Assembly (NCBI GenBank): GCA_002336725.1
Contig: DDEO01000031.1
Span: forward strand, 1-35,362
Direction: 5' to 3'
Length of the DNA: 35,362 bases
From: Bacteroidetes bacterium UBA1952
Lineage (GTDB): Bacteria; Bacteroidota; Bacteroidia; Chitinophagales; Chitinophagaceae
Below the pieces are notes generated by a model. That model was not told the DNA's origin, made no database searches, and was given only the letters and a program-made list of their open reading frames with translations. Positions 747 to 35,266 of the stretch are shown piece by piece. The first letter of the stretch is position 1, and each line of letters begins with the position of its first letter. The position numbers were made by a program, and so were the translations under genes.

Positions 747-832
747 TTCCGGAAAATACCCAACCTTATTCCGGAAAATGGCCGTCTTTAGAAATTGCCC
801 CGTGGGTGCTGCGGGCATAAAAAGTTCCGGAA
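747..832. repeat. Three copies of the palindromic octamer TTCCGGAA in the divergent carB / giant-ORF intergenic region
   Basis: Exact TTCCGGAA at 747..754, 769..776 and 825..832, read directly from the sequence. Confidence 0.9.
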
Positions 833-972
833 ATCGTCTTTCTGAAGAGGCGGGATTTAACTATTTGCATTGTGAATAGAAAAATTCCTACCTTAGAAGG
901 CTCTAAAGGCGTTTCCTGTATTTATATGCAGTTGCGCTTCCGGATTTTCTTCTTTTGTATTTACAACCTGCT

Positions 973-3900
973 ATGAGCAAGACTTATACTTCTTTGTTCC
1001 GAACTGATAGGAACTTTTGCTGGTTTAATTCAGGCACACTTCGGCTAACGATGCTGTTACTGATTGCGTTGTTTCTGGGAAACAGCGTTCACGCACAAGT
1101 GCTTCTGTCGGAATCTTTCGACGGTGCCACGTTTCCGCCGACGGGCTGGACGGTAAATGGTACGGGAGTGAGTACCAATCCGAATACTCCGACGCAAATA
1201 GAATGGACGCGGGATCCTGGTGGGGTCACTACTGCTTATGCACCTTATACAAACGCAGCCGGCCCGCACACGGGGGCCGGTATGGCCTTTTATAACGCTT
1301 GGGATATTTCTGCCGGAGGCGTTTCTAATCTTATTACGCCGGCGCTGAACTTTGCCTCACCGTCAGGAACGAAGGTTATTAGTTTTTGGCTTTACCGCAA
1401 CAATGCCCAAGTAGCAAATGATTCGGTAGTAGTTTTAATTAATAGTACGGCCAGTGTAACGGGTGCTACCCGGCTTTTTGGCGTTGCCCCGAGTGAGGGC
1501 GCACCCAGCAGTCTGTGGCAGCAGTACACCGTGAACGTTCCTGCCTCTTTTAATGGCGCTTCTCAGTATATTATTTTTCAGGCTCAATCTGCTTACCAGA
1601 CAGACATATTCTTAGATGATGTGTCTATAAACAATTTGCTTGCCTGTAGCGGCGCTCCTACCTCACTGGTGCTTTCCGCTAGTGTTACCTCTACCTGTCC
1701 TGCTACGCCCTTTACGCTCACGGCTAATCCGGGAATGTTGTCGGGATATACCTATCAATTTGAATCGTCCACCAATGGAGGTGTAACTTGGAGCAACTTG
1801 GGAACGGCATCAACGAATGCAACCTATACGGTTACCAATCAGACTGCTGCCACACAGTATCGGGTAACTGCAACCTGCACAAGTGGCGGCGGCAGCACTA
1901 CTTCCACTCCGGTTTCGGTAGGACAAAACGCACAGAGCAGTTGCTACTGCATCCCATCGAGTACTTCTACTACTTATTATATAGACAACTTCAGCACGAC
2001 GGGTGGTATTTTGAATATCAGCAATCTGGCTTCCGGGCAGTCGTCAAACGGTTATGGACAGTTTTTGGCCCAGACGGTTTCGCAGACACCCCTTCAGTCG
2101 GTTGGTTTTAACGCCTCTTTCGGGGGATCTGGTTCCACCTACGGTTTCACTATCTGGGTGGACTGGAATCAGAACGGCAATTTTAGCGATCCGGGCGAGA
2201 AGGTTTTTAGTAGCACTTCCTATAATGCTACCTATAACGGCACTTTTATGGTGCCTGCCACAGCACTTTCCGGCCCCACTCGTATGCGCATTACCGCCGA
2301 CTATCTGAACTCCTCACCGAATGCGCCCTGTCAGACAACTTCGGCTTATGCAGAATATGAAGACTATACTTTCAATGTGATAGCACTCACGGCTTGCTCT
2401 GGGACGGTTTCGGCAGCCATCGCGAGCAGCATCACGGCCGCCTGCCCGAATGTGCCTTTTACATTAACCGCAACGCCAAACACATTGTCCGGTGTTACGT
2501 ATCAGTTTCAGGCCAATACGGGCAGCGGCTGGACGAACCTGGGAACTGCATCTGTAAATCCGAGCCGTACGGTTACGACACAAACGGTCGCTACGCAGTA
2601 TCGGGTATATATTACTTGTAGCGCCGGCGGAACCGATACTTCTGCGGGTGTAGCCGTTGCCCAGAATCCACCGAATCAATGCTACTGCACCCCGTCGAGC
2701 GCATCCACCTTTTATTATATAGACAACTTCAGCACGACGGGTGGCCTAACCAATGTCAGCAATCTGGGATCGGGGCAGTCTGTCAATGGCTACGGACAGT
2801 TCTTGTCGCAGGTCGTTTCCCAGAATCCAACATTTCCGGTAAGCTTTAGCACCTCTTTTGGCGGTTCCGGAAGTACTTATGGTTTTACGATTTGGGTGGA
2901 CTGGAACCAGAACGGCAGCTTTAGCGATCCGGGCGAGAAGGTTTTTACCAGCAGCTCTTACAATGCCAGCTATACGGGTACTTTCACGGTGCCTGCCACG
3001 GCCGCTGCGGGTACTACCCGTATGCGTATCACGGCGGATTATCTGAATACTTCGCCAAACGATCCATGTCAGACGACCTCGGCCTACGCAGAGTATGAAG
3101 ATTATACCTTTAATGTGATTCCGCTTACGCCTTGTACCGGCACACCTTCGGCTACTATCGCGAGCAGTATTTCTTCTGCCTGCCCGAATCTGCCGTTTTC
3201 TCTAACGGCATCCCCGCTGGGGCAATCCGGCCTGACATATCAGTTTCAGTCTTCTACCAATGGTGGTGCAAGCTGGAATAATATGGGCGCTGCCTCTGCC
3301 AGCCCCAGCTATACGATTGCTACGCAAACAGTTGCGACGCAATACCGCGTATATATTACCTGTAACGCCGGTGGAACCGATACTTCTGCACCTGTATCCG
3401 TTGCGCAGACTCCTGCTACCGGTTGCTATTGCATCCCATCGGGCAGCACTTCCGGTTATTATATCAATAATTTTGTAACCACGGGCGGCATTACTAATAT
3501 ATCCAATCTTGGTACCGGATATCAACCTGGTGGTTATGGTCAGTTTCTGTCGCAAAATGTTACGCAATTCCCAGGGCAAACGGTGAGCTTCACAGCTGAT
3601 TTTGGTGCTGGTAGCAATACTTTCGGTTTTGCTATCTGGGTGGATTGGAATCAGAACGGCAGCCTTACCGATCCGGGAGAAAAAGTGTATTCTTCCACTA
3701 ATTATAGTACCAGCCACAGCGGAACTTTTACGGTTCCTGCAACAGCACTCTCCGGCCCCACCCGGATGCGAATCGGCAACAGCTATACGCCGAGTACCGG
3801 CCCTGCTTCGCCTTGCTCCACCGGTATCTCCGGCGAGTTTGAAGATTACACCTTCCAGGTCGTTCCGCTGGTACCGTGCAGTGGCCCGCCCAATATCGGC

Positions 3901-9185: not shown

Positions 9186-9210
9186 TATGCACCTTGCAGC
9201 ATATCCCCGC

Positions 9211-10257
9211 ATGAACATTTCCGGAAAATATCTGCTGCCAATGCTGCTGCTGCTCGCCCTGCTGCCGGGCTGCCGAAGCGGAGAAAAAGCAACGCCCGCC
9301 TTCTATTACTGGAAAACCACCTGGCAAGCCACGCCCCTTTCCTCCGAAACTTTCCGGAAAATAAAAGCCCAAAAATGCTATCTGCGCCTCTGCGACATTG
9401 GCTATGACCCCGGCAGCCGGACGATTGTTCCACAAGATGTGCTGCGCATTCCGGAAAAAGCCGCCCTGCCCAAAGCCGAAATCATTCCGGTGATTTTCCT
9501 GGAGCCGGCAGCCCTCAAAAGCCTACAAACAGAAAAAGACATTACCCAACTTTCCGGAAATATTGCCCGTTTTGCGAGCCAATATTGTCGGCAGCAAGGG
9601 TGGGAGATAGAAGAATTTCAACTGGACTGCGACTGGACGACCCGCACGGCAGAAATCTATTTCCGCCTGCTGCGGGCATTGAAAAAAGAACCCTTTTTTT
9701 CCGGAAAAATCCTCTCCGTTACGCTGCGCGGCCATCAGGTGAAATACCCCGGAAAAAGCGGCATTCCGCCCGCCGATCGCTGTATGCTGATGGCCTACAA
9801 CATGGGCGACATCCGCTCGCTGACACCGGAAAATTCTATCCTCGACGTGCCGACGGCTAAGGATTATCTGCAAAACCTCTCGGCCTATCCCTTGCCGCTC
9901 GACCTGGCGCTGCCCATCTTTCGCTGGACGCTCTGGTATCGCAACGGACAACTGCTCGGCATCCTGCGCGGCGTGGACCCGGATGCGCTGGCCCAATATT
10001 CATTTCTCCGGAAAGCGAAAAATGCGAACCTTTATACCTGCCTGGCCGATACCGCGCTTGGTAGCTACCGGCTGCAAGCCAGCGATCTGCTAAAAGCCGA
10101 ATCACCCCGGCCCAAAGAAGTCGCAGATATCGCTGCCTATGCCACGCGAAGATTTCCGGAAAAACCCTATGCCGTTGTTTTTTATCACCTCGACGATGCC
10201 AACCTGACCCGCTATGATACCCGCCAACTGGAAGAAATACTCCGCCATTGCCATTAG
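9211..10257 (+). CDS. Putative lipoprotein of unknown function
   Basis: The ORF track gives 9187..10257. The ATG at 9211 gives MNISGKYLLPMLLLLALLPGCRSGE, a signal peptide plus lipobox Cys. No family was recognised by eye. It contains six TTCCGGAA copies. Confidence 0.75.
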   Translation: MNISGKYLLPMLLLLALLPGCRSGEKATPAFYYWKTTWQATPLSSETFRKIKAQKCYLRLCDIGYDPGSRTIVPQDVLRIPEKAALPKAEIIPVIFLEPAALKSLQTEKDITQLSGNIARFASQYCRQQGWEIEEFQLDCDWTTRTAEIYFRLLRALKKEPFFSGKILSVTLRGHQVKYPGKSGIPPADRCMLMAYNMGDIRSLTPENSILDVPTAKDYLQNLSAYPLPLDLALPIFRWTLWYRNGQLLGILRGVDPDALAQYSFLRKAKNANLYTCLADTALGSYRLQASDLLKAESPRPKEVADIAAYATRRFPEKPYAVVFYHLDDANLTRYDTRQLEEILRHCH

Positions 10258-12655
10258 CGCCCTTGCCCTGACGCTGGGCGAACAAATCGTGCAGGCCTGC
10301 ACCGAAGCCCCCGACCCGGGTGATTACTACATCTCTTTCTTTGATAACAAGCTGCCGGTTTCCGGAAATTATGACCTTTTCCGGTATTCAGCCTATACCG
10401 GAATGCTCTATGAAAGCTGGTATGTAGAAGATAATAACACCGATACTGCCGACGGCAACCGCGCCGAGTGGGCCGTCTACACCGGCGTTCCGCCGGCCGA
10501 TGTGGACAGTTTTGTTTATAGTTACGAACGCCCGGTACTGGCCGCTTTGTATGCCAATATCGAAAAAGGCACCCCTTCGGAACTGCTCGCGCCTTATGAA
10601 GGCAACCGTATGGTGCAATGGTTTCGGCGCTCCAAAGACCTCGAAGCCCTGGGCTATCTGATGTATGCCAAGCAGATTCAGCCCTACGCCAACCGCACGC
10701 CTGCTGACCCGTGGAGTCCCGCACCGCCGCCCGACAAGTCCATGATTGAAAAGCTGCGCAAAAACGGAATGCAACTGTATGCCGCTGCGCACAAGCCATT
10801 CATCCGCGACCGGTATGCCTATCAGGTGGAGCGGCTGGCCTTTGCGGGTGCAAATTATGAAGATGCCCTGCGCATTTATAAAGAAATAGCGCCCAAAACC
10901 AATTCCAATATCTCTGGACGGGCATTGGGGATTGAAGCCGGCGCATTGTATCGCCTGAAGCGAATGCCCGAAGCCGCCTACCGCTACAGCCTGCTCTTCG
11001 ATCGCGGCGAGGAATGGCGGCGCAGCGCCTTTATTTCCTATAGCTGGACGGGTGCTGACACCAATACGGCTCCCGTTCTGGCGCTTTGCAAAAATGCCCA
11101 CGAGCGGGCCGTCGTGCAGGTGCTGAGCGGATTGTATGCCTACGAACCGGCGCTGGATAAAATAAAAGCCGCCCTGCGCGAAGACCCCGCCGTAAACGGA
11201 CTCGACGCACTGGTAACCCGCGAAATCAACAAGATAGAAGAACGCTTTATTACCGATGTGCTGCTGGCCAACCGCGAGCAACTGTACAGCACAACCGTTA
11301 CGCCCTGGCCCGTAACAAGCTACTGGCCGGCAGTGAATGAATATAACGACAGCACCGGCGCTTTAAAAAAGGCACGGCTGGAAGAATACCGGAAAACGAC
11401 GCTGCAACTGGCGGACCTTATCAACGAAGCGGCTGCCAAAAATCCCAAAAGTGGTTTCTGGTCCATTGCCGCCGCCTATCTTTCGCTCGTTACCGGCAAC
11501 CAGACAGACCTTGAAAAGCAGCTTCAAAAAGCAGAAGGTATGTCGAAAACAGCACGTGAAAAAGACCAGATCAGCGTCATTAAACTGCTGAGCGTGAGCC
11601 GCGACAACGGGAAGATTACGCCGGAAACCGAAAAAGCCATGCTGCCCCACATTCAGTGGCTGGAAAGTCGCCGGAAAACCTCGCCCCGGCTGGACAAAAC
11701 CTACCGCGATTTCAATAATGGTTACCTGACCTCTGTTTATCTGCGGCAGGGCGATACCGCCAAAGCCATTTTTGCCCTCGCGCATTCGCAGCAAGTCTAT
11801 CAGGATACCAGTTTCGTCTATGGCGTGCAGGATGATTTTATGGATGCATCGGGCCTTATCCTGCAATCGCTGCGCCCGGAGCAGTTTGAAAAAGTAAAAA
11901 CATTTGCTACCCAACAGGGCGGCACTGCCTACGATAGGTGGCTGCGCGGCGATGGCAATATCTATCCGCTGGCGATGCTGCTGGAGCTGGAAGGAACCTA
12001 TCGCCTGCGCGAACACCGCTTCGCCGATGCGGCGGCCATTTTCCGGAAATCCAACGCCAAAGCACTCGCGGTGCATCCAATGCCCAATCCTTTCCGCGTA
12101 ACGGTGCGGGATTATATCGAGTGGGACGCGCAGGATTCAGCAACGCAAATCAACAAATTGCAGTTTGCCGAGAAAATGGCCGCGCTGCAACCGAAAACCG
12201 ATGCCGAAAGTCGCCTGCAATATGGCCTGGGATTATATGGCATGAGCTATTATGGCAAGGCCCACCGCGCCTCCGATTATTACCGCAGCGGCGTGGACGA
12301 CTATGCCTATTACGACGATACCAGCCGCCGTCGCCTTTCGGCAACCCAACAGCAGTATTACAACCCCACCGAGGCCGAAAAAGCCTTTGTGGATGCAGCC
12401 CGCAGCGCCACCGCGCCGGAGACGAAAGCCATCGCCCTGTTTATGGCTGCCAAATGCTGGCAAAAGCGCGCACCCGTGCCGACGAGCGGACGGCCCTATT
12501 CCTGGAGCGGCCCCGGCGAGAATGATCCCTACTACCATAACAGCCTGAAAAATCCGTATTTCCGGCAAATGAAAGCCGAAGTGGGCGAAACGCAGTTTTA
12601 TCGGCAAGCATTGCGCTCCTGCGATTACCTGAGCGATTATGCCCGGAGGCGGTAA
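10214..12655 (+). CDS. Large (813 aa) putative lipoprotein / helical-repeat protein of unknown function
   Basis: Long ORF overlapping the upstream gene by 44 nt. The N-terminus KKYSAIAISALALTLGEQIVQAC looks like a signal/lipobox. The body is rich in Y/A/L helical-repeat-like sequence. No family was recognised by eye. Confidence 0.7.
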   Translation: MIPANWKKYSAIAISALALTLGEQIVQACTEAPDPGDYYISFFDNKLPVSGNYDLFRYSAYTGMLYESWYVEDNNTDTADGNRAEWAVYTGVPPADVDSFVYSYERPVLAALYANIEKGTPSELLAPYEGNRMVQWFRRSKDLEALGYLMYAKQIQPYANRTPADPWSPAPPPDKSMIEKLRKNGMQLYAAAHKPFIRDRYAYQVERLAFAGANYEDALRIYKEIAPKTNSNISGRALGIEAGALYRLKRMPEAAYRYSLLFDRGEEWRRSAFISYSWTGADTNTAPVLALCKNAHERAVVQVLSGLYAYEPALDKIKAALREDPAVNGLDALVTREINKIEERFITDVLLANREQLYSTTVTPWPVTSYWPAVNEYNDSTGALKKARLEEYRKTTLQLADLINEAAAKNPKSGFWSIAAAYLSLVTGNQTDLEKQLQKAEGMSKTAREKDQISVIKLLSVSRDNGKITPETEKAMLPHIQWLESRRKTSPRLDKTYRDFNNGYLTSVYLRQGDTAKAIFALAHSQQVYQDTSFVYGVQDDFMDASGLILQSLRPEQFEKVKTFATQQGGTAYDRWLRGDGNIYPLAMLLELEGTYRLREHRFADAAAIFRKSNAKALAVHPMPNPFRVTVRDYIEWDAQDSATQINKLQFAEKMAALQPKTDAESRLQYGLGLYGMSYYGKAHRASDYYRSGVDDYAYYDDTSRRRLSATQQQYYNPTEAEKAFVDAARSATAPETKAIALFMAAKCWQKRAPVPTSGRPYSWSGPGENDPYYHNSLKNPYFRQMKAEVGETQFYRQALRSCDYLSDYARRR

Positions 12656-14569: not shown

Positions 14570-14589
14570 ATCAGGGAAATTTCCGGAAA

Positions 14590-16557: not shown

Positions 16558-16585
16558 TTCCGGAAAATCCCGGAAATTTCCGGAA
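16558..16585. repeat. Three helically phased (10-bp spacing) TTCCGGAA-type sites
   Basis: ttccggaaaa-tcccggaaat-ttccggaaaa: exact octamers at 16558 and 16578, and a one-mismatch copy at 16568. They sit between the porQ-like stop and the Gre-like gene start. Confidence 0.85.
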
Positions 16586-18884: not shown

Positions 18885-19044
18885 TGCAGAACGCCTAACC
18901 TCATGAGCTTGTAGAAGCCGGCAGGAGTGCTGCTATTGGGCGGGCAAAGCACGATAGCATTTCCGGAAATTCAAGTGGGTGTCGCACCCCTGTTTACAGA
19001 ATACGCACCGTCTGAAGATGAAAAAGCGCGTTCGGGTATGGGCA

Positions 19045-19465: not shown

Positions 19466-19574
19466 GGTGATTTTCAGACAAAAGACGATAGCGGAAAGGC
19501 AAAAGACTATCGGCCTTTGGGAAAAGATACTTTTTTCAAAGAACTGCCTGCGAATATACGATTTTTTCCGGAAA

Positions 19575-19898: not shown

Positions 19899-20187
19899 GC
19901 TGCAAAATAGTTTTTTCTTTTGGTCAAACGTAGCACAGGCCTGGTTGATGCCTTTTTAAAAGGTGATTTTTCCGGAAAATAAGCTGCAACCCTTTTACCC
20001 ACGACGCTCTTTGGCGGGGGCGCATTTCACCTTTGCCTGAAATCTTCCTTTTCTACTTATACCATTTTGCTGGTTAAATTTTGCATAGAAATTCTGGCTC
20101 CAGCCCTTACGCAGCAAGGGTTTTAGGAGATTTTATGTGCAAGATTTAGCTGTCCGTTTGGTATTATGCGCCAACTTTCCCCACGCC

Positions 20188-22713: not shown

Positions 22714-22749
22714 AGAAACCTATAAGGTTTTTGAAACCTTATAGGTTTG
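22714..22749. repeat. 36-nt palindromic element, copy 1 (15-bp perfect stem, 3-nt loop)
   Basis: ag-aaacctataaggttt-ttg-aaaccttataggttt-g. It is the exact reverse complement of 23837..23872. The right arm plus the flanking g forms TAGGTTTG (22742..22749), a TAnnTTTG match 43 nt upstream of the deacetylase ATG. Confidence 0.9.
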
Positions 22750-22791
22750 GAACAAATTTCCGGAAAGACTGTTTCTTCGCAGTCCCTGCCT

Positions 22792-23703
22792 ATGCCGCCG
22801 CCCTTCATTGCCTTCGACCCGATTTATGCCCATCCGCTGCCCGAAGGTCACCGCTTCCCGATGCTCAAATACGAGCTGATACCGGCCCAACTGCTCCACG
22901 AAGGCACGATTCCGGAAAGCGCACTCTTTGCGCCCCATCCCATTCCGGAAAATAGCATCCTGCGCACCCACGATGCGGATTACTGGCAGCGCATGAAAGC
23001 CCTCCAACTATCGCCCCGCGAGATGCGCGCCATTGGGTTTCCGCTCTCGGCGCCGCTCGTGGAAAGGGAAATCCGCATCCTGCAGGGCACGCTCGACTGC
23101 GCACGTATCTCCGAAACCACCGGCGTGGCGCTCAACGTGGCCGGCGGCACGCACCACGCTTTTGCCGATAAAGGCGAAGGCTTTTGCCTGCTCAACGATT
23201 TTGCCGTGGCGGCCAACGAACTCCTTTTCCGGAATCCCAAAGAGCGCATCCTTATCTGCGACCTCGACGTGCATCAGGGCAACGGCACGGCGGCGCTGCT
23301 TTCCGGAAATAAAAGCGTTTTTACCTTCTCGATGCACGGGGCGCACAACTATCCATTCCACAAGGAAAAAAGCACCCTCGACATTGGTTTGCCCGACGGC
23401 ATTTCCGGAAAAGAATACCTGCAGATTCTTCGGGAAAATCTCCCCAAAATCATCGACACCTTTCGCCCCACACGCCTTTTTTACCTGAGCGGCGTGGATG
23501 TACTCTCGACCGATAAATTCGGCAAAATGGGCCTCACGCGGGAAGAATGCGCCGCCCGCGACCGCTTTGTGCTGGAAACCGCCCGGTGTCATTCGCTGCC
23601 GGTAGCGGTGGCGATGGGCGGCGGCTATTCACCGGAAATAAAAGACATTGTGGAAGCGCACTGCAACACGTTCCGGATTGCAGTAGATGTGTTTGGGCTG
23701 TGA
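22792..23703 (+). CDS. Histone deacetylase family (Zn-dependent deacetylase/amidohydrolase) protein
   Basis: From MPPPFIAFDPIYAHPLPEGHRFPMLKYELI. Motifs: NVAGGTHHAFADKGEGFCLLND, DLDVHQGNGTA, SMHGAHNYP, SGVDVLSTDKFG and MGGGYS. Confidence 0.9.
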   Translation: MPPPFIAFDPIYAHPLPEGHRFPMLKYELIPAQLLHEGTIPESALFAPHPIPENSILRTHDADYWQRMKALQLSPREMRAIGFPLSAPLVEREIRILQGTLDCARISETTGVALNVAGGTHHAFADKGEGFCLLNDFAVAANELLFRNPKERILICDLDVHQGNGTAALLSGNKSVFTFSMHGAHNYPFHKEKSTLDIGLPDGISGKEYLQILRENLPKIIDTFRPTRLFYLSGVDVLSTDKFGKMGLTREECAARDRFVLETARCHSLPVAVAMGGGYSPEIKDIVEAHCNTFRIAVDVFGL

Positions 23704-23872: not shown

Positions 23873-23909
23873 GATGCCCCGGATTTCCGGAAAAAGCCGG
23901 GCAAAGTCC

Positions 23910-24364: not shown

Positions 24365-25582
24365 TTAAATACCGGAAGCCATCAGCAGGTCGAGGTCGGT
24401 ATATTTCATCCCAAAACGTTTGGAGATAGGTGCGCTTGTTACCGATCCTTTGTAGAGATACACGCCGTGGCGCAGCCCTGCTTTCGAGAAAATTACATTT
24501 TCGGCACCGCCATGTTCCCTAAATTCCAGCAACACCGGCATCAATACATTGGAAACCGCCCGCGAGGCCGTTCGTGAAACCCCCGATGCAATATTGGGTA
24601 CACAATAGTGAATGACATCGTATTTCCGGAAAACGGGCTTCTCGTGCGTCGTCATTCGCGAAGTTTCCACGCAGCCGCCCCGGTCGATGCTCACGTCAAT
24701 AATCACCGAACCGGCCTTCATATTCTGCACCATTTCTTCCGTTACCACCATCGGCGTGATGCCGTTTTGTGGCTTCATCGCGCCAATCAGCACGTTGGCA
24801 TTCATCAGCTCCCGCGCCAGCGTTACCGGCTCTATCACCGAGGTATAAAGGCGGTGGCCTACATGGTTTTGAAGGCGCATCAGCCGATAAATAGAATTGT
24901 CGAACACCTTCACCGAAGCGCCCAGCCCCAGCGCCGTGCGGGCTGCATAAGTGCCTACAATGCCGGCCCCGATAATCACCACTTCGGCGGGCGGAACGCC
25001 GGTGATGCCGCCCAGCAACACGCCTTTTCCCTGGTGCATCCCATTGCTGAGCAGTTGCGCCGCCGTGAGGATGGCCGAGGAACCGGCAATCTCGCTCATA
25101 GCACGCACGACAGGATACGTTCCGGCATCGTCTTTGATAAACTCGAAGGCAATGGCAATGATTTTTTTGCGAACCATTTCTTCAATCATCTCCTGCTTGA
25201 TGAGCGGCAGATGGATGGGCGAGATGATGACCTGCGAGGGTTGTAGCAGCGGCAGTTCCTCTTCGCAAATGGGCGCAGATTTGATGATAGTGGTCGCCTT
25301 AAAAACATCTTCCTTGTCGTAGGCAATGCGTGCGCCGGCTTCGCTGTAATCGGAGTCGAAATAGAAAGACCCATCGCCCGCGCCCTGTTCAATAACCACT
25401 TCCACACCGTTGTTGACCAACACGCTCACGGCTTCGGGCGTGAGCGGTACGCGGTTTTCCAGAAAAGCCGTCTCTTTAGGAATACCTACAAACATCTCTT
25501 TGCGGCGCGGCATCACCTCCAGGGTTTCCGCCAGGGTGGAATAAGCAAAAGAAGCGGTAACGACAGGACGCTTTACCATCAT
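24365..25582 (-). CDS. Alanine dehydrogenase / PNT-family NAD(H)-binding dehydrogenase
   Basis: FVGIPKETAFLENRVPLTPEAVSVLVNNGVEVVIEQGAG and the Rossmann motif VVIIGAGIVGTYAARTALGLGASVKVFD. The start was chosen at MMVKRP (25582). An alternative start, MFVGIPKE, lies further in. Confidence 0.8.
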   Translation of the reverse strand: MMVKRPVVTASFAYSTLAETLEVMPRRKEMFVGIPKETAFLENRVPLTPEAVSVLVNNGVEVVIEQGAGDGSFYFDSDYSEAGARIAYDKEDVFKATTIIKSAPICEEELPLLQPSQVIISPIHLPLIKQEMIEEMVRKKIIAIAFEFIKDDAGTYPVVRAMSEIAGSSAILTAAQLLSNGMHQGKGVLLGGITGVPPAEVVIIGAGIVGTYAARTALGLGASVKVFDNSIYRLMRLQNHVGHRLYTSVIEPVTLARELMNANVLIGAMKPQNGITPMVVTEEMVQNMKAGSVIIDVSIDRGGCVETSRMTTHEKPVFRKYDVIHYCVPNIASGVSRTASRAVSNVLMPVLLEFREHGGAENVIFSKAGLRHGVYLYKGSVTSAPISKRFGMKYTDLDLLMASGI

Positions 25583-25773
25583 GTGGCAGGAGGGTTGAAG
25601 AAGGGAAAGATAATTCCGGAAAACGGAATGCTTGCAGGTACGCTCCTGCAAAGTTCGCCCTAAGTGCTAATTGTGTTACGACTTTCCGGGATAGAAAATT
25701 AAATTTCCGGAAAAGTGCCGTTTGTCAGCCCAGCGCCGCTTCCCTTTTAACGCCGTAGTGCAAACCCAAATGA

Positions 25774-25819: not shown

Positions 25820-27298
25820 ATGATTCGTCAGTTTCAGACTCAAAAACTTCTTCAACGTCTTTCGCCGCAGCAGATTCAGTTTATGCAACTGCTGCAAGCG
25901 CCTACTATGGCCCTGGAAGAACGTATCAAAGAAGAACTTGAGATAAACCCAACGCTGGAATATGCCTCGGAATCGCCGGGGGCCAATGATGCCGAAGAAG
26001 ACGATTATGAGGCCGAAGACGAAAACCTGGAGTCTTCCGCCGAAGGCGAATCCATCGATCTGGATGAATATCTGCGCAGCGAAAACCAGGACGATGCCGA
26101 CGTTTGGGAAGACGAACCGCAATACAGCGGCTCCGGCAGCGGCGACAGCCCCGGCGGGCGCTACTCGGTAGAATCGGGCTTTTATGAACAAATGATGGAG
26201 CAGGTGTCGATGCTGGGCCTGCCGGCGGAAGAAGACGCAATTGCCCGCCAACTGGTAGGCACGCTCGACGAAGACGGCTACCTGCGCCGCGACCTCGTCT
26301 CTATCGCCGACGACCTCGCCTTTGGCCAAAACGTTTATACCGATGTCGAAAAGGTGGAATCGGTTTTAAAGAAAATCCAGCAACTCGACCCGCCCGGCAT
26401 TGCCGCCCGCGACCTGCAGGAATGCCTGCTGCTGCAACTCGAACGCCAGCCCCAAAACATACCCGCCGTGCAGCACAGCATCGAAATTCTGCGGCGCTAT
26501 TTTCCGGAATTTACCTCCAAACACTACGAGCGCATTCAGCGTTCCCTCCAACTGAGCGACGAGGAACTGCGCGAGGCCATCAATCACATCCTGAAGCTCG
26601 ACCCGCGACCCGGCGTGGCTTTCAGCGTGCTCAACCGCGCCGAGACCTATGTGGTTCCGGATTTTTTTGTGCGGACTGAAAACGGCGAACTGCACGTAAC
26701 GCTCAACGCCCGCAACGCGCCGGAACTGCGCATCTCGGAAAGCTATCAGGAAATGGTGCAGGCCTACGAGCGCAGTCAGTCGAAGAGCGCGGCCCAAAAG
26801 GAAGCCATCAGCTTTATCCGCCAGAAACTCGACTCGGCCAAGTGGTTTATTGATGCCATCCGGCAGCGCCAGCAAACGCTGCTCGGCACGATGAACGCGA
26901 TTATTTCCCTTCAGAAAAATTTCTTTATCACCGGCGACGAATCGGCCATCCGGCCCATGGTGCTGCGCGATGTGGCGGCCATCACGGGGCAGGATGTCTC
27001 CACGGTTTCGCGGGTGGTAAACAGCAAATACATCCAGACCGAATACGGAACCTACCGACTCAAATATTTTTTCTCGGAAGGTCATCAGCTCGAAAGCGGC
27101 GAAGAGGTGAGCACCCGCGAGCTGCGCAAAATTCTACAGGAAGCCGTGGGCAATGAAGACAAAAGCGCCCCGCTCTCCGACGAAAAACTCACCGAACTGC
27201 TGGCCGCCAAAGGCTACAATCTGGCGCGCCGCACGGTGGCCAAATACCGCGAACAATTGCAGATTCCGGTAGCGCGAATGCGCAAAAGCCTGGGGTAG
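25820..27298 (+). CDS. rpoN: RNA polymerase sigma-54 factor
   Basis: MIRQFQTQKLLQRLSPQQIQFMQLLQAPTMALEERIKEELEINPTLE, an acidic linker, and the C-terminal RpoN box ARRTVAKYREQLQIPVARMRK. Confidence 0.95.
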   Translation: MIRQFQTQKLLQRLSPQQIQFMQLLQAPTMALEERIKEELEINPTLEYASESPGANDAEEDDYEAEDENLESSAEGESIDLDEYLRSENQDDADVWEDEPQYSGSGSGDSPGGRYSVESGFYEQMMEQVSMLGLPAEEDAIARQLVGTLDEDGYLRRDLVSIADDLAFGQNVYTDVEKVESVLKKIQQLDPPGIAARDLQECLLLQLERQPQNIPAVQHSIEILRRYFPEFTSKHYERIQRSLQLSDEELREAINHILKLDPRPGVAFSVLNRAETYVVPDFFVRTENGELHVTLNARNAPELRISESYQEMVQAYERSQSKSAAQKEAISFIRQKLDSAKWFIDAIRQRQQTLLGTMNAIISLQKNFFITGDESAIRPMVLRDVAAITGQDVSTVSRVVNSKYIQTEYGTYRLKYFFSEGHQLESGEEVSTRELRKILQEAVGNEDKSAPLSDEKLTELLAAKGYNLARRTVAKYREQLQIPVARMRKSLG

Positions 27299-27446: not shown

Positions 27447-28289
27447 ATGTTGTTTTTTCGCCTCCTTTCCCGCCTGCCTCTCTGGCTGCTCTACGGTTTT
27501 TCCAGCGTGGCGCGGGTGGTTCTTTTCGGGGCAATGCAATACCGCAGAAAGGTAGTTTTGGAGAATTTAAGGCACGCCTTTCCGGAAAAAAGCATTCCGG
27601 AAATCCAGGCTGTCCGACGGGCTTTTGAGGCGGCCTTTTGCGACCAATGGGTAGAGACCATCAAGTTGCTTTCCGTTTCCCGAACAACGCTCAACCGGCG
27701 TATGGCCGGCAACTGGGAACTGCTGCGCCAACTGGGCGAAGAAGGCCGCGATGTGTATGTGTTGCTCGGTCATCAGTTCAACTGGGAATGGGCCTTTGTA
27801 GCGACGCAATGGAATATCCCGCAAACAATGGCGGGCTTTTACCTGCCGGTTTCCAATCCGTCCTTCGACCAGTTGATGCAGCGCATTCGTTCGCGCGGCG
27901 GCGGGCTGCTCATTTCCCTTAAAAACCTGCGTGCCGGACTGATGGCCTTGCAAGGCAAACGCTTTGTAGCCGGACTGATTGCCGACCAGAATCCTTCGCA
28001 GCCGGAAAATGCCCTCTGGGTTTCGTTTATGCACCGCGAAGCGCCGTTTTTTCGGGGGCCGGAAGCACTGGCGCGCAAGGCGGGGGCGGCGGTTGTTTTT
28101 GCAGAAGTGGTCCGGGAAAAGCGCGGGCGCTACGAGGTAATTTTAACCCTGTACACGCGCAATGCCGCAGCGACAACGCCGGAAGAAATCACGCGCCGGT
28201 ATGTGCAGCACCTGGAAGAATGCCTGCACCGGCAGCCGCATAATTATCTCTGGAGCCACCGCCGCTGGAAGTGGAAGCGGGATGAATAA
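27447..28289 (+). CDS. Lipid A biosynthesis (LpxL/HtrB-type) lysophospholipid acyltransferase family protein
   Basis: N-terminal TM segment, RRKVVLENLRHAFPEKS, the HQFNWEW acyltransferase motif, and the C-terminal YLWSHRRWK typical of this family. Confidence 0.8.
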   Translation: MLFFRLLSRLPLWLLYGFSSVARVVLFGAMQYRRKVVLENLRHAFPEKSIPEIQAVRRAFEAAFCDQWVETIKLLSVSRTTLNRRMAGNWELLRQLGEEGRDVYVLLGHQFNWEWAFVATQWNIPQTMAGFYLPVSNPSFDQLMQRIRSRGGGLLISLKNLRAGLMALQGKRFVAGLIADQNPSQPENALWVSFMHREAPFFRGPEALARKAGAAVVFAEVVREKRGRYEVILTLYTRNAAATTPEEITRRYVQHLEECLHRQPHNYLWSHRRWKWKRDE

Positions 28290-28633: not shown

Positions 28634-31600
28634 CTATGCCAGTTTCTTCAATTCGGCCACGCGGGCTTCTTTGTCCACCTCGTTTTTGAGCTTATCGCCC
28701 TTGTCGAGGTCCACCAGAATCGGGGCGGCAACGAAGATGGAAGAATACGTGCCGATGACTACGCCAATCAGCATGGCGAAGGCGAAGCCACGGGTTGTTT
28801 CGCCGCCAAACAGGAACAGCACCAGCACCACCAGAAACACCGTTACCGAGGTCATAATCGTGCGGCTCAGCGTGTCGTTGATGGAGCGGTTGATAACCGT
28901 TTTCTTGTCCTGGCCCGGATGTTTCCGGAAATTCTCGCGGATCCGGTCAAATACAATCACCGTATCGTTCATCGAGAAGCCAATAACCGTGAGGATGGCG
29001 GCGATGAAGTGCTGATCAATTTCAAGGGTGAAGGGTACTACATGGCGCAGGAACGAGAACACGGCCAGCGTGATGGCCACGTCGTGTACCAGCGAGGCGA
29101 TGGTGCCCAGCGAATACTGCCATTTCCGGAAACGAACCAGGATATAGATGAAGATGGCCGCCAGCGAGAGCAGTGTTGCCTGCACCGCACCTTTCTTGAG
29201 GTCGTCGGAAATAGTTGGGAGAACGGTTTGCTCATTCACCACATAGTTGCGACGGAAAGCCTCCAGCGACACACTGGCCGGGATCAGCCCTTCCTTCGTC
29301 AGGCCCTCATGCAGCTTGGTGGCCACCTTGCCGGTTGCTTCCTGCGTGTGTTGCTCGATGAGGTACGTGGTGGTGATGTTCAGCTCGTTGTTGTTGCCGA
29401 TGGTCTTTACAATCGGGCGTTCGCCAAAGTATTTATCCAGCTTCTCGCGTACTTCCGTTACTGTGTAGGGCTTGTCGAAGCGAACCGTATAAGAACGGCC
29501 ACCGGCAAACTCTACGCCATAATCGAAGCCGTTGAACAGCGAGCCGATACCGGCCACAAATACAATTGCGAAGATGATATAGGCTACTTTCCGGAAACCG
29601 ATAAAGTCGAAATGGGCTTTCTGGAAGATCTTCTTCGACAGCGTGGTGAAATAATTGAAGTGGCGGTTCCGGTTGGTGTACATATCGGTGATAAGACGGC
29701 TCACCGAAAGGCCGCCAAAGACCGACAGGATGAGGCCGAGCATCTGCGTAGTGGCAAAGCCGCGCACCGGGCCGAGGCCGAAGTAGAACAGGATCAAGGC
29801 CGTGATAAACTGGGTGATATGCCCGTCGAGCACCGGCGCATACGAGCGGGTATAACCGCGCCGCACGGCCTCGGGGTAGGTATGCCCTTCGGCCAGTTCT
29901 TCTTTAATCCTTTCAAACACAATTACGTTGGTATCCACCGCCATACCGATGGTCAGCACCAGACCGGCAATGCCCGGCATGGTGAGCGTGGCACCAAACA
30001 TCGAGAGGATGGCGATGGTGAAAAACACGTTCAGGATAAGCGCGATATTGGCCACCATACCGCCCGTGTTGTAATACACCAGCATCAGGGCGAAGATGAT
30101 GACAAAGGCGATGATCAGCGAGTTGATACCCGAAGCGATGTTTTCAGCGCCGAGCGTCGGGCCTACTACCTGCTCCTGCACGATGCGCGCCGGGGCGGGC
30201 AGCTTGCCGGTCTTGAGGATATTGGCCAGGTCGGTGGCATCTTCGAGGGTGAAGGAGCCGGAAATAGCCGTGTTGCCGCCGGCAATTTCGCCGTTTACGA
30301 TGGGCGAAGAATACACCTTGTCATCGAGCACAACGGCCACGAATTTGCCCACGTTGGAGCCGGTCATCTTCTTCCAGATCTGCGCACCGGAGAAGTCCAT
30401 GCTCATGCTCACCTGCGGTTCGCCGTTCATGCCAAAGTCGGAGCGGGCATCCACCACATGGTTGCCTTCAAGCTGTGCGCCGCCGCCGGGTGCCTGCTTC
30501 AGTGCATAGAGGCGCAGTGGCGCAGCGGCGTTGTTGCGCTCGGCGCGGCTCTCGGAGCCATATACAAACTTCACATTGGCCGGGAATTGATTGCGCACCG
30601 CGTCGAGCGCCAGGTATTGATTCAGCTGGGCGGTATCTTTCTTCATCACCAGGCCCACCACCGGCGAGTTTCCGCGTAGCAGGTCTTCGGAGAGCAGCCA
30701 CACTTTTTGCAGCGGATTTTTTCCGGCATCGGCTTTGGAGGTATCGCCCGGCTTGGTGGTGCCGCCTACCAGTGCGCTCAGCGAAGAGGTGTCGCCGGCA
30801 GCCGGAGCGGTCGTTTTTGCGGTATCGTTTTTGGCAACGGTTGCGGTGTCGGTCGGGGTGATTGCTTTTGTGCCGCTCAGGTAGGCCGCGAGGGCTTTTT
30901 CAGCCGCCTCATATTTGGTCAGGATTTCCTGATTGTTATAAGTCTCGTAGAACTCCAGATTGGCGGTGCTTTGCAGGTAGTTGCGCACGCGCTCCGGGTT
31001 GCGCACACCGGCCAGTTCAACGGTGATGATTTCTTTGGTTTCATCGAGGTTGATATTGGGTTGGGCAACGCCAAACTTGTCAATCCGCGTTTGAAGCACC
31101 TTGTAAGTGCGTTGTACGGCATCTTTGGCTTCTTTGCGAATCTGGGCCAGCACCTGATCGTTGGAGCTTTGCAGGGTAATTTTTTCCTGCGAAGGCTTGG
31201 TGAACAGGTAGGCAATTTTGGCCGAGGGGTTGGTCTTTGCAAACTCTTCGCCGAAGAGCGTTACAAAGTCGGCCTGGCTGCTGGCTTTGCGTTCTTCTGC
31301 CTTCGCCAGTGCAGCGTTGAGCGCCGGGTCCTGTGGGTTGTTGCTCATGGAGCGCACCAGGTCGGAGAGGCTCACGTCGAGCGTTACGTTCATACCGCCC
31401 TGCAGGTCGAGGCCGAGGTTCAGCTCGTTGGCCTTGGCTTGCTGGTAGGTATATTTTTTGAAGAGCAGATTCACGACCTTTTCGCCCTGAAGCGAGTCGG
31501 TGAGGTGATTGTATTGCTCGTCAATGAGGTGCTGAAGCTCCAGGCCGGAAGCCGTTGGATGTGCGGTGCGCGTCTGTCGCTCGGCCTGTGCGCGGGCTTT

Positions 31601-33300: not shown

Positions 33301-33322
33301 GCCTTTCCTAATTTCGCTTCCC

Positions 33323-35266
33323 GTGCTTCTTTCCGTCATCATCGTCAGCTATAACGTCCGGCATTTTCTGGATTTGTGTCTGCATTCGGTTTTGCGCGCG
33401 GCAGAAGGGCTTTCAGTGGAAGTGATTGTGGTGGACAATGCCTCTGCGGATGACAGTGTGGCGTGGGTGCGGGCGCATTTTCCGGAAATAAAAGTCATTG
33501 CCAATACCGGAAATGCCGGCTTTTCGAAGGCCAACAATCAGGGCGTGGCGGTGGCGCGGGGGAAATACATCCTGTTTCTGAACCCCGACACGGTGATGCC
33601 GGAAGATTTTTTCCGGAAAACGCTGGCCTATATGGAAGCCCATCCGCAGGCCGGTGCGCTTGGGCCGCGCCTCATCGACGGCAAGGGGCAGTTTGCGCCC
33701 GACTCCAAGAAAGGCTTTCCCAGTTTTGGCATTGCCCTTTTCAAGACCATTGGTTTGAATCGGTTTTTTCCGAAATCGCGGCTCTTCAACGGCTATTATG
33801 CCCCGCACATCGGCGAGTATGAAACGGCGGCGGCGGAGGTGCTTTCGGGCTGTTGTATGCTGGTGCGGCGCGAGGCGATGGAGCAGGTGGGCGGTGCCTT
33901 CGACGAGCGTTTTTTTATGTACTGCGAAGATGTGGATCTGAACTATCGCATCGCGCAGGGCGGCTGGCAGAACGTCTATTTTCCGGAAACCAATCTCATC
34001 CATTATAAGGGCGAGAGCACCCGCAAGGCCACGCTTTCCTACATCCGGATTTTCAACGAGGCGCTGGCAGCGTTTGTGCGCAAGCATTACAGCAAAGGCT
34101 CGGCGCGGGTATTTATTTTTCTGCTCCATATCGGCATTGCCGTTCGGGCCGTTTTGGGGGTGTTGAAGGCACTTTTCAAGCGGTTGAAGCTGCCCCTGCT
34201 CGATGTGGGCATTCTGCTGCTCACGCTGGCGGCAGTGCAGGCTTTCTGGGTCAATTCCGTGAAAGGCATCGAGCCGGTGGATGCGCGGCTGCTGTGGCTG
34301 ACGTATCCGGTGTATATCCTTACCTGGATTGGGTCTTTGTATCTGAATGGCGCTTACGACCCCACGTATAGGCCCCTGCGGGTGGTGCGCGGGATGTTGG
34401 TCGGCACGGTGATTGCGCTGGCTTTTTATGGATTGCTGCCGCCGGAGATGCGGTATTCGCGCGGCGTGGTGGTGCTGGGCGGCATCAGCGGCACGGTGGC
34501 GTTGCTGGCGGCGCACATTGTGCTGCAAAAGCTGGGTATTACCGGTCAGGTTCCCTATGATGCGGCGGCCCGCGAAGCGGTGATTGTGGGCAGTGGAAAA
34601 AGTGCTGCCGAGGCGCGCGGTGCTTTGCAAAAGATTGCCGGTGCGCCGCGCGTGGTGGGCCGGGTGGGCGTTGGCGAAAGCGCCCTTGCGCCGCTGTCTG
34701 ATTTAGGCGGTCTGGTAGAGACGGCGGGCATTGGGGAAGTTATTTTCTGTGCTGCCGATGTGGGTTATGGCGAGATGTTCCGGGCGATGGCGGCGTGTGG
34801 CCCGCGCTATGATTACAAAATCTTTTTGCCGGGCCGGGCGGGTTTTGTTGGCTCCAATTCGAGTAGTACGGCAGGCGATCTTTATACTGCCGACTTGCGT
34901 TACAAGCTTTCCGATCCTTCGTTTCGGCGCAAGAAACGCACCTTTGACGGGGTGTCTGCGTTGGTGCTGCTGGTGTTGTTTCCGCTAACGTTTTGGTTGT
35001 TTCGTTCGCCGGGCGGCTGGCTGGGAGTTCTTTTCGCGATTCTTTCCGGAAATAAATCCTGGGTTGGTTATGGGGGCGGGGCGGCGGGGTTGCCGCGCTT
35101 GCGCGAGGGCATTTTGCCGCCGTGGCAGGTCGTGGAAGACTATGTGCCGTCGCAGGCGGTGGCCGCCACGCTCGATCGGCAATATGCGCTGAATTATGTG
35201 CCGGGGAAAGACCTGGCGTTGTTGGGGAAAAACCTCCGTTTCCTGCGCCGGAAAAAATATTTCTAA
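33323..35266 (+). CDS. Family 2 glycosyltransferase with a multi-TM C-terminal extension
   Basis: GTG start. LSVIIVSYNVRHFLDLCLHSV...VIVVDNASADDSV...NTGNAGFSKANNQG...LFLNPDT is a GT-A/GT2 signature. The C-terminal half has several hydrophobic segments and a sugar-transferase-like KKRTFDGVSALVLLVLFPL stretch. Confidence 0.8.
   Translation: MLLSVIIVSYNVRHFLDLCLHSVLRAAEGLSVEVIVVDNASADDSVAWVRAHFPEIKVIANTGNAGFSKANNQGVAVARGKYILFLNPDTVMPEDFFRKTLAYMEAHPQAGALGPRLIDGKGQFAPDSKKGFPSFGIALFKTIGLNRFFPKSRLFNGYYAPHIGEYETAAAEVLSGCCMLVRREAMEQVGGAFDERFFMYCEDVDLNYRIAQGGWQNVYFPETNLIHYKGESTRKATLSYIRIFNEALAAFVRKHYSKGSARVFIFLLHIGIAVRAVLGVLKALFKRLKLPLLDVGILLLTLAAVQAFWVNSVKGIEPVDARLLWLTYPVYILTWIGSLYLNGAYDPTYRPLRVVRGMLVGTVIALAFYGLLPPEMRYSRGVVVLGGISGTVALLAAHIVLQKLGITGQVPYDAAAREAVIVGSGKSAAEARGALQKIAGAPRVVGRVGVGESALAPLSDLGGLVETAGIGEVIFCAADVGYGEMFRAMAACGPRYDYKIFLPGRAGFVGSNSSSTAGDLYTADLRYKLSDPSFRRKKRTFDGVSALVLLVLFPLTFWLFRSPGGWLGVLFAILSGNKSWVGYGGGAAGLPRLREGILPPWQVVEDYVPSQAVAATLDRQYALNYVPGKDLALLGKNLRFLRRKKYF

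Follow-up and report, generated by a model that had tools for sequence, protein, structure and literature searches.

An octameric palindrome, very probably of the highly iterated type, in an uncultured Chitinophagales-like clade, and an alternate palindrome in a sister lineage

Genes of the window and copies of the palindrome

We analysed a 35,362-bp stretch of contig DDEO01000031.1 (54.5% G+C), referred to here as the window, in which an octameric perfect palindrome, TTCCGGAA, occurs in 40 exact copies. The stretch is a piece of ordinary chromosome from a Bacteroidota bacterium. Its protein products include a 2,717-residue GEVED/MAM protein sorted by the type IX secretion system (T9SS), a sigma-70 factor, a trypsin-like protease, FabI, a WYL regulator, a deacetylase-family protein, alanine dehydrogenase, RpoN, a lipid A acyltransferase, a fused SecDF, RlmN and a GT2 glycosyltransferase. 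The assignment to Bacteroidota made in an earlier reading of the letters (the original prediction) is upheld by the T9SS sorting domains, the fused SecDF and the best protein matches, which are metagenomic proteins and metagenome-assembled genomes (MAGs) labelled Sphingobacteriales or Chitinophagales. Identity to proteins of the named genera Flavipsychrobacter, Taibaiella and Polluticoccus is only 55-68%, indicating that the host belongs to an uncultured soil/water lineage of roughly family level. The window is the sole sample of its own genome, and the genome-wide claim made below rests on relatives.

The original prediction had listed 40 starts of the palindrome by eye. Its count and all but one of its coordinates are borne out, the copy placed at 28922 beginning at 28923. 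About three quarters of the copies had been said to extend to a 10-mer palindrome, and 29 of the 40 (72%) do lie within TTTCCGGAAA; these are marked "full 10-mer" in the following list. For copies in open reading frames (ORFs) the strand of the gene and the codon phase are given, and handles beginning with L denote loci of relatives that are described later.

747..754, full 10-mer: intergenic, upstream of the giant T9SS gene
769..776: intergenic, 22 bp from the copy at 747
825..832: intergenic
2865..2872: sole copy in the 8.1-kb T9SS GEVED/MAM gene 955-9108 (+), phase 2 (x-S-G-x)
9219..9226, full 10-mer: ORF 9187-10257 (+), phase 2
9352..9359, full 10-mer: ORF 9187-10257 (+), phase 0; TFRKI, orthologues VFKEG/TAAAI
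9449..9456: ORF 9187-10257 (+), phase 1; RIPEK, orthologues RVGEK/RITEP
9552..9559, full 10-mer: ORF 9187-10257 (+), phase 2; common to L004
9699..9706, full 10-mer: ORF 9187-10257 (+), phase 2; common to L004
10154..10161, full 10-mer: ORF 9187-10257 (+), phase 1
10360..10367, full 10-mer: ORF 10214-12655 (+), phase 2; in L004, not in L003
12041..12048, full 10-mer: ORF 10214-12655 (+), phase 0; in L004, not in L003
13646..13653, full 10-mer: trypsin-like peptidase gene (+), phase 0; AFRKN, L003 AFRST
14581..14588, full 10-mer: intergenic, 12 nt past the stop of the peptidase gene
16558..16565, full 10-mer: intergenic, just downstream of ORF 16594-17892 (-)
16578..16585, full 10-mer: intergenic, 20 bp from the copy at 16558
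18961..18968, full 10-mer: intergenic, in the gap between fabI and the transfer-messenger RNA (tmRNA) gene
19566..19573, full 10-mer: intergenic, ~100 bp upstream of the tmRNA gene
19970..19977, full 10-mer: intergenic, upstream of the WYL regulator gene
20762..20769: WYL regulator gene (+), phase 1
22758..22765, full 10-mer: start region of the deacetylase-family ORF 22747-23703 (+), phase 2
22910..22917: deacetylase-family gene (+), phase 1
22943..22950: deacetylase-family gene (+), phase 1
23227..23234: deacetylase-family gene (+), phase 0
23301..23308, full 10-mer: deacetylase-family gene (+), phase 2
23403..23410, full 10-mer: deacetylase-family gene (+), phase 2
23885..23892, full 10-mer: intergenic, 18 nt past the stop of ORF 23910-24338 (-)
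24624..24631, full 10-mer: alanine dehydrogenase gene (-), phase 0; VFRKY, a protein-constrained site present in all relatives, motif-free ones too
25614..25621: 5' extension of the alanine dehydrogenase ORF; probably intergenic, because orthologues of the protein have 404 residues
25705..25712, full 10-mer: intergenic, in the divergent promoter region between ald and rpoN
26502..26509: rpoN (+), phase 1; YFPEF, four relatives YFAEF/HFADF/YFGDF/YFEEF
27580..27587, full 10-mer: lipid A acyltransferase gene (+), phase 1
27595..27602: lipid A acyltransferase gene (+), phase 1; SIPEI, relatives SSVEI/TEAEI
28923..28930, full 10-mer: secDF (-), phase 0; NFRK
29124..29131, full 10-mer: secDF (-), phase 0; RFRKW, spelled with CGG by the motif clade and with CGC by four other genomes
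29589..29596, full 10-mer: secDF (-), phase 0; GFRKV, relatives GARK
33480..33487, full 10-mer: GT2 gene (+), phase 1; HFPEI, relatives HFPQI/HFPQV
33611..33618, full 10-mer: GT2 gene (+), phase 0; FFRKT, L168 FFQKT
33981..33988, full 10-mer: GT2 gene (+), phase 1; window-specific
35044..35051, full 10-mer: GT2 gene (+), phase 2; common to L166

The base composition of the window predicts 0.52 copies of TTCCGGAA. Dinucleotide-preserving shuffles of the window yielded a mean of 0.88 (sd 1.03, maximum 7), and Markov models gave expectations of 0.78 at order 1 and 3.3 at order 3, higher orders being saturated by the motif itself. The enrichment is 50-80-fold. Highly iterated palindromes (HIPs; Robinson 1995, Elhai 2015) are by definition the most over-represented short perfect palindromes (8-10 bp) of their genomes, at observed-to-expected ratios of tens to hundreds, and with 40 copies against 0.5-3.3 expected TTCCGGAA has this property in the window. 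The commonest 8-mers are TTCCGGAA and words overlapping it, and the second-ranked palindromic octamer reaches only 4 copies.

The flanks of the copies are A/T-rich at positions -1 to -3, with T at -1 in 85%, and are conserved in no other respect. This indicates that TTCCGGAA is a free-standing word and not a piece of a repetitive extragenic palindromic element (REP) or of a miniature inverted-repeat transposable element (MITE). Like REPs, bacterial interspersed mosaic elements (BIMEs) and MITEs, the word has many dispersed copies and a palindromic character; unlike those imperfect intergenic palindromes of 30-150 bp, it is 8-10 bp long and mostly genic, with 70% of its copies inside genes where a REP or MITE would be an intergenic unit conserved over at least 30 bp. 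A few close pairs of copies (747/769, 16558/16578, 27580/27595) are what a dispersed mobile or repeat element (REP, MITE or a CRISPR-like one) or a local repeat could leave behind. We nevertheless regard this explanation as negligible, since nothing is conserved beyond ~10-12 bp, most copies lie in frame inside conserved housekeeping genes, and unrelated loci of five other genomes have a similar density. A longer repeat or MITE is ruled out by the flanks, in which sequence more than ~10-12 bp from the copies is unique.

The many one-mismatch relatives that the original prediction had noticed prove to be of two kinds. Variants at position 2/7 (TNCCGGAA) are indeed enriched, about 10-fold (TACCGGAA 12 copies, TGCCGGAA 12, TCCCGGAA 6), whereas variants inside the CCGG core stand near background, and here the claim fails; the commonest of the latter are the C-to-T products TTTCGGAA (4 copies) and TTCTGGAA (5 copies). 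One-off variants retain one perfect half-site. We considered whether the half-site CCGGAA is the true unit and rejected it: the 76 non-palindromic half-sites compare with ~45-50 expected from the CCGG count by a rough hand estimate, and so modest an excess (1.6x) leaves the full palindrome as the unit.

Placement of the word in genes and between them

Coding sequence (CDS) holds 28-29 copies of TTCCGGAA, and 11-12 lie in the 4.8 kb of intergenic DNA, corresponding to densities of ~1.0 per kb in genes and ~2.3 per kb between them. Coding copies are spread almost evenly over the three codon phases (10/10/9), with the readings F-R-K/N, x-P-E and x-S-G-x. Both the intergenic placement and the use of all three phases with these readings had been part of the original prediction, and both are confirmed by the counts.

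We compared the 29 copies observed in CDS with two codon-level nulls. A synonymous-codon shuffle within genes, which preserves each gene's protein and codon usage, gave 4.5 +/- 1.8 copies (200 trials, maximum 11), so that the observed count lies 13 sd above the mean; a shuffle of codon order gave 0.9 +/- 1.0. The excess thus survives Markov and codon-shuffled nulls alike, as had been anticipated. Compatible peptides are in large part spelled with the motif. Outside the giant T9SS gene, this is the case for 9 of 10 F-R-[KN] tripeptides, 10 of 13 [FLIV]-P-E and 8 of 22 x-S-G-[A-initial codon], or 27 of the 45 compatible contexts (19 of 23 for F-R-K/N and x-P-E together). Dispersal over non-coding DNA and over coding DNA in all frames, to an extent that codon usage and peptides do not explain, is a second mark of HIPs that TTCCGGAA displays.

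We saw no positional rule for TTCCGGAA relative to genes or promoters in the window: four intergenic copies follow a stop codon by no more than 40 nt, and promoter regions hold others. Regular spacing was also considered and rejected. The coefficient of variation of the gaps is about that of random placement, and in five of six loci the gaps are Poisson-like and indistinguishable from random. The window deviates from random spacing only on account of a desert in the giant T9SS gene (955-9108, +; GEVED/MAM/Reelin repeats), which carries a single copy in 8.1 kb. Likewise, the homologue of this gene in the related locus L004 (L004 16271-21482) has 1 copy in 5.2 kb. The 2,717-residue protein contains neither F-R-K/N nor [FLIV]-P-E tripeptides. 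The gene may be young, horizontally replaced or fast-evolving, and the desert fits a short exposure to the process that installs the word, or a quick turnover.

The word among relatives and an alternate palindrome

We examined loci of relatives anchored on RpoN or SecDF, threading codons onto protein alignments. These gene-anchored loci were chosen without regard to the motif, whereas the loci of the MAG OH_PBB_261 and of Firmicutes MAGs considered below were ascertained by it. The gene-anchored loci rich in the word are the following.

L166: SecDF 93% identical to that of the window; 24 copies of TTCCGGAA in 23 kb
L167: SecDF 91% identical; 22 copies in 23 kb
L004: RpoN 84% identical; 24 copies in 21 kb
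L002 (GCA_004144185.1 SEFP01000002.1): RpoN 77% identical; 23 copies in 21 kb

L005 was grouped with L004 among the motif-carrying loci. The original prediction had staked its claim on an enrichment reaching beyond the window, and the densities of 0.95-1.13 copies per kb in the gene-anchored loci provide it. Other relatives lack the word: L003 and L168 (both ERZ26165376) together have 3 copies in 44.5 kb, L006/L007 have 1 and the outgroup L171 has 0.

A different palindrome, TGCCGGCA, is found in L169 (ERZ24825753 k141_835028; SecDF 80% identical), with 25 copies in 23 kb, and in L170 (ERZ22666098; SecDF 79%), with 6 copies in 7.6 kb; TTCCGGAA is at background in both. This second word usually lies within YTGCCGGCAR, and 16 of its 22 coding copies read xxT-GCC-GGC-Axx, or Ala-Gly. 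Its density (1.08 per kb) matches that of TTCCGGAA, and the densities of the window, L166, L167, L004, L002 and L169 converge on ~1.0-1.1 per kb whichever word is used. The two words share the frame T-N-CCGG-N-A. They occupy different positions, fitting different peptides, and direct conversion of TTCCGGAA into TGCCGGCA at orthologous positions, considered as a route between them, was not seen in SecDF, RlmN or GT2.

In a single-protein neighbour-joining tree of SecDF, clade A unites the window, L166 and L167, whose TTCCGGAA copies have T/A flanks. Clade B contains L002, in which the word has S flanks, and its sister L003/L168 without the word; clade C consists of L169 and L170 with TGCCGGCA; the deeper branches have neither word. 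L002 prefers C/G at its flanks (CTTCCGGAAG / GTTCCGGAAC) instead of T/A, and TCCGGA with other flanks is strongly enriched there (57 copies, with ATCCGGAA at 14). The specificity of the reader appears to be looser or different in this branch.

Orthologous sites give a closer view of how copies arise. At the RFRKW and NFRK sites of SecDF, the peptide is spelled TTC-CGG-AAA in the window, L166 and L167 and TTC-CGC/CGT-AAR in L168, L169, L170 and L171. A gain of the motif through synonymous changes, which the original prediction had proposed as a test, is seen as CGG in the motif clade against CGC/CGT elsewhere. Gains by amino-acid change occur as well, at the RpoN site and at the acyltransferase SIPEI and the GT2 HFPEI and FFRKT sites listed above, and SecDF reads IFRKA in L167 only, the others having IFKKA/IFQKA. 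In a comparison of the window with L004 (77.7% nucleotide identity over 6.9 kb), the sites in common are 5 of the 11 in the window and 5 of the 6 in L004, against 19% of all 8-mers, and all three SecDF sites (3/3) are common to the three clade-A genomes. Sharing above the 8-mer background, together with sites confined to one lineage, shows that the word is both gained lineage-specifically and retained.

These comparisons bear on whether composition, codon usage or a preferred peptide (FRK, xPE, SGK) could produce TTCCGGAA incidentally. The synonymous shuffle leaves 4.5 copies and not ~1, so that amino-acid sequence contributes somewhat. We nonetheless give this explanation practically no credence. 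The CDS count is far above the shuffle, three unrelated peptide readings are used equally, and 11-12 copies lie in non-coding DNA. Moreover, relatives with the same G+C content and the same proteins (L003, L168, L006, L171) show no enrichment, and the conserved RFRKW and NFRK use CGG only in the motif clade. Thus the shuffles, the Markov nulls and the motif-free relatives rule out a composition, codon or peptide artefact. The use of all phases, the near saturation of compatible contexts and the gains among orthologues agree with the earlier view of selection or generation at the level of DNA and not of peptide. The process that installs and conserves TTCCGGAA acts on the DNA itself, overriding synonymous codons and, at tolerant positions, amino acids.

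A pattern scan of GTDB for three copies within 76 bp on genome contigs extended the comparison; it is not a census, and chance matches were underestimated. Among the matches listed, most were local tandem repeats in unrelated taxa, and only the MAG Bacteroidetes bacterium OH_PBB_261 (JAEWBT01) was clearly motif-rich, with 6, 14 and 20 copies of TTCCGGAA in three 8-kb stretches; two Firmicutes MAGs gave weak signals. One OH_PBB_261 locus is orthologous to L169 (68-71% nucleotide identity), which places this MAG in the same broad clade. The Firmicutes loci, both of gut or rumen origin and found through a 3-copy cluster, are from a Ruminococcus sp. MAG (L038, CAMNCU010000022.1; 9 copies in 8 kb) and Lachnospiraceae RUG285 (L102, ONGY01000001.1; 8 copies in 8 kb). 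In each, TTCCGGAA is the top or near-top 8-mer, and isolated copies number 5 and 3, respectively, against ~0.1 expected. On these weak hints, the same word may have been amplified in unrelated phyla and the phenomenon may be polyphyletic.

Three scans of IMG/VR produced one convincing contig with host-like density, too few to tell avoidance from mimicry by phages. This contig (L134, IMGVR_UViG_3300009714_000118; 53.7% G+C) has 7 copies of TTCCGGAA in 9.6 kb and encodes an S49 prohead protease, a major capsid protein E, a tail terminator and a tail tube. A phage or prophage of the motif lineage, sharing the word of its host, is the probable source, and the 7 copies indicate that the word is no liability for at least one resident virus.

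Each word embeds a hexamer with a CCGG core, TCCGGA in TTCCGGAA and GCCGGC in TGCCGGCA, which are the BspEI/Kpn2I and NaeI/NgoMIV sites, respectively, of a CCGG-core type II family. TCCGGA outside the octamer is at expectation in the window (9 copies against 8-15). In the motif-free sister genome, for which hexamer statistics rest on the 44.5 kb of L003 and L168, TCCGGA is depleted (3 against 9.4-17.9 expected; Poisson P = 0.016 to 2e-5 by Markov order), GCCGGC is likewise depleted (8 against 25-41) and CCCGGG occurs at a normal level. The pattern resembles restriction avoidance aimed at the very hexamers that the sisters amplify. As a separate observation, CCCGGG (the SmaI/XmaI site) is rare in the motif clade, with 4 copies in the window against 12-15 expected and 13 in L166, L167 and L004 together against 21-27. 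L168 also carries, at 1359-2363, a TIR-STING (prok_STING) protein beside unknown genes, with an HNH protein and a Tn5-like transposase further on; the region looks like a defence locus resembling cyclic-oligonucleotide-based antiphage signalling systems (CBASS).

CCGG outside the full word is enriched 1.7-2.6x in motif-rich genomes against 1.3-1.5x in motif-free relatives. Such an excess would be expected of a functionless mutational generator, in which correction towards CCGG of the very short patch (VSP) type combines with a context-dependent polymerase or repair bias, and the C-to-T products TTTCGGAA and TTCTGGAA as the commonest core variants also fit. Bhagwat and McClelland (1992) and Merkl (1992) are said to have found the frequency of CCWGG in E. 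coli raised by Dcm/Vsr repair bias, a precedent for enrichment of a methyltransferase site by repair. That effect, however, is less than 2-fold and concerns the methylated cytosine only, whereas the 50-80-fold enrichment here is far above known VSP effects and includes the outer A/T. Correction of C/T mismatches cannot install the outer T/A, and the sites are conserved above other 8-mers. We therefore consider a purely mutational origin improbable.

Candidate readers, known systems and other features of the window

The evidence of the preceding sections makes it very probable that TTCCGGAA is a DNA-level palindrome of the HIP type, which an uncultured Chitinophagales-like clade maintains along its chromosome at about one copy per kb. 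The closest parallel is HIP1 (GCGATCGC) of cyanobacteria, which occurs at 300-2700 copies per Mb and is lacking from some genomes (PMC4390886, PMC5861425). Like HIP1, TTCCGGAA (~1000 per Mb) is a free-standing octameric perfect palindrome, often extended to a 10-mer, with an observed-to-expected ratio of tens to hundreds, located in non-coding DNA and in all coding frames, conserved above control octamers, and lineage-specific with exceptions. A distribution that is genome-wide, extends to relatives and has sites conserved over control octamers characterises HIPs and is seen here, the window's own genome being sampled by 35 kb. Exceptional relatives, without the word or with another palindrome in its place, are a further HIP character found in this clade. 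The analogy with HIP1 that had been drawn at the outset is strengthened by the sister lineage with TGCCGGCA.

The differences from HIP1 are equally clear. The word here has a CCGG core with AT arms in Bacteroidota, in place of a GATC core with GC arms in Cyanobacteria, and its one-off variants fall at position 2/7, not 1/8. HIP1 has the cognate methyltransferases DmtA/DmtC, whereas the reader of TTCCGGAA is only a candidate. HIP1 is periodic at 10-90 kb (the 2018 NAR study, PMC5861425), and local spacing within the 35 kb here is Poisson-like. HIP1 proper comprises GCGATCGC, a cyanobacterial host and DmtA/DmtC, none of which applies, and TTCCGGAA is accordingly an analogue.

Alternate HIPs are known in cyanobacteria: rCCGGy / tGCCGGTg-type words in Oscillatoria PCC 10802 and GGGATCCC in Yellowstone Synechococcus, each containing a type II methyltransferase site (PMC4390886). 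As with these, related genomes have one palindrome in place of another, the pair here being TTCCGGAA and TGCCGGCA, and one of the cyanobacterial words is also CCGG-cored. In contrast to them, the two words here share the frame T-N-CCGG-N-A, the switch falls within a family-level clade (80-84% SecDF identity), and a third sister depletes both embedded hexamers. HIP1 and alternate HIPs co-occur with a methyltransferase for the same sequence (PMC4390886, Elhai 2015), and a preprint reports that methylation of HIP1 makes natural transformation up to 100-fold more efficient (bioRxiv 10.1101/2024.09.10.611283). According to a 2026 preprint, the abundance of HIP1 co-varies with the DNA-uptake machinery.

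As to what drives the accumulation of the word, we lean, tentatively and with somewhat less than even confidence, towards a methyltransferase-linked self-mark that biases recombination, uptake or repair. The word would be the binding site of a reader of symmetric double-stranded DNA, most likely a CCGG-family DNA methyltransferase specific to the lineage, acting on TCCGGA here and on GCCGGC in the sister. Once methylated, the word would mark DNA as 'self' and favour conspecific DNA in recombination, uptake or repair, and alleles carrying it would be fixed preferentially through molecular drive and purifying selection. Gain would be balanced by mutation and protein constraint at ~1 copy per kb, and a change in the specificity of the reader would lead to re-tagging of the genome with a new word. 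We favour this self-mark because the words contain canonical hexamers, because the word switch conserves CCGG and because a sister genome avoids the hexamers. The stronger CCGG enrichment of motif-rich genomes outside the full word and the phage contig with its 7 copies also count in its favour. For the CCGG/TCCGGA methyltransferase that the original prediction had linked to the word, the depletion of TCCGGA and GCCGGC in the motif-free sister offers circumstantial support.

Several points weigh against it. A hexamer methyltransferase alone fails to explain the constraint on the outer T...A (positions 1 and 8) and does not account for the softness of position 2/7 in one-off variants. Methylation-linked biases such as that of Dcm/Vsr at CCWGG amount to only ~1.3-2-fold, not 50-80-fold. 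Searches with C5- and N-methyltransferase motif patterns revealed no methyltransferase, Vsr or restriction gene in ~330 kb of sampled loci, comprising the clade loci, two Firmicutes loci and one phage contig. Poisson-like spacing gives no support to a model of evenly spaced marks. Two weak xPPx matches from the methyltransferase scan were discarded after Pfam assigned them to a peptidase and an unknown protein.

An uptake or recombination signal independent of methylation, in which binding of the palindrome by a competence receptor or a recombination protein biases exchange towards conspecific DNA, would resemble the DNA uptake sequences (DUS) of Neisseriaceae and the uptake signal sequences (USS) of Pasteurellaceae. 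Under this alternative, the word switch would correspond to DUS 'dialects', lineage-specific forms that Frye et al. reportedly described in 2013, and the difference in word between sister lineages is as it predicts. It also accommodates a density of ~1 per kb in coding and non-coding DNA, the higher intergenic density (2.3 against ~1.0 per kb), amino-acid changes at tolerant positions, several copies just past stop codons, and a motif desert, in two genomes, in a giant and probably fast-turnover T9SS gene. The 2026 preprint proposes that HIP1 itself is an uptake sequence. DUS and USS share with TTCCGGAA a density of ~1 per kb, placement in genes at tolerant positions and molecular drive (PMC1939737); they are, however, asymmetric 9-12-mers that need a known competence receptor, whereas TTCCGGAA is a perfect palindrome and agrees with them in density, tolerant placement and lineage dialects only. 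Known uptake sequences are non-palindromic (PMC1939737). Furthermore, the words here are type II restriction-modification hexamers plus T...A that a sister genome avoids, neither of which a pilin-type receptor predicts, and a phage structural module has the word almost as densely as the host, for which uptake drive is an unlikely source. On balance, we consider an uptake signal possible but doubtful.

An abundant architectural or nucleoid-associated protein, or a global regulator, could bind T-N-CCGG-N-A as a homodimer and organise the chromosome. A perfect palindrome with AT-rich arms, the intergenic enrichment and the distances of 15-33 bp between some copies are suited to such a protein, and one-off variants keep one perfect half-site, as they would for a dimeric binder. 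A role in nucleoid structure has been argued for HIP1 (PMC5861425), whose periodicity has been read in these terms. Yet two thirds of the copies are in genes, in all phases and at amino-acid cost, the spacing is random and no promoter rule is apparent. Loss of the word in one sister and its replacement in another would need rapid co-evolution of an essential protein, and the analysis identified no candidate protein. We judge an architectural role unlikely.

The broader proposal is that a family-level uncultured Chitinophagales clade carries an undescribed CCGG-core HIP system that re-tags genomes upon a change of reader, with TTCCGGAA, with TGCCGGCA, or with the word erased and its hexamers counter-selected; to us this is evenly balanced between right and wrong. 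The full-text literature searched, mostly without subscription journals, does not describe TTCCGGAA, TTTCCGGAAA or TGCCGGCA as a palindrome iterated in bacteria, and all of the HIP literature retrieved in it is cyanobacterial, which accords with the original prediction, where no equivalent in Bacteroidota was known to the reader. The HIP phenomenon is extended to another phylum, in which it has words of its own and switches between them unusually cleanly within a clade. HIP1 has been a 30-year puzzle treated as a peculiarity of cyanobacteria, and a second phylum makes the question comparative. If the proposal is true and the reader is a methyltransferase or derives from a restriction-modification system and is coupled to recombination or uptake, this would be an independent, non-cyanobacterial origin of HIPs and a natural specificity-swap experiment that could reveal the way in which such words arise and their role. 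Word identity can be correlated, across a shallow tree, with the content of methyltransferase, restriction, Vsr-like and competence or recombination genes. Iterated words also distort k-mer-based binning, the detection of horizontal transfer and codon models; they visibly alter proteins, creating or removing FRK and xPE tripeptides; and they are natural barcodes by which contigs and phages can be assigned to this lineage. If the words behave like methylated HIP1, they could offer a route to transformable bacteria of this clade.

The remaining features of the window are as follows.

19093-19465 (-): tmRNA gene with tag peptide GNTQYAMAA; TTCCGGAA on both sides (18961, 19566) and 0 copies inside
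21807-22808 (-): 333-residue ORF without a Pfam match; G+C at third codon positions 0.41, against 0.60-0.76 in the adjoining genes
19040-19090, 15310-15335, 15730-15760, 16565-16585 and 25680-25700: hairpin-stem regions containing AAAATCCCGGAAA

The 5' end of the ORF at 21807-22808 overlaps the start of the deacetylase-family ORF, and the former may be mis-called or foreign. We also considered AAAATCCCGGAAA (6 copies) as a second word and set it apart from the finding, since its copies form the stems of ordinary intrinsic terminators such as that of the tmRNA gene. The tmRNA terminator is the clearest of these stems, reading AAAATCCCGGAAATCA-AGCC-TGATTTTCCGGGATTTTTT on the minus strand, and the terminator stems of this genome seem to favour CCCGG/CCGGG.

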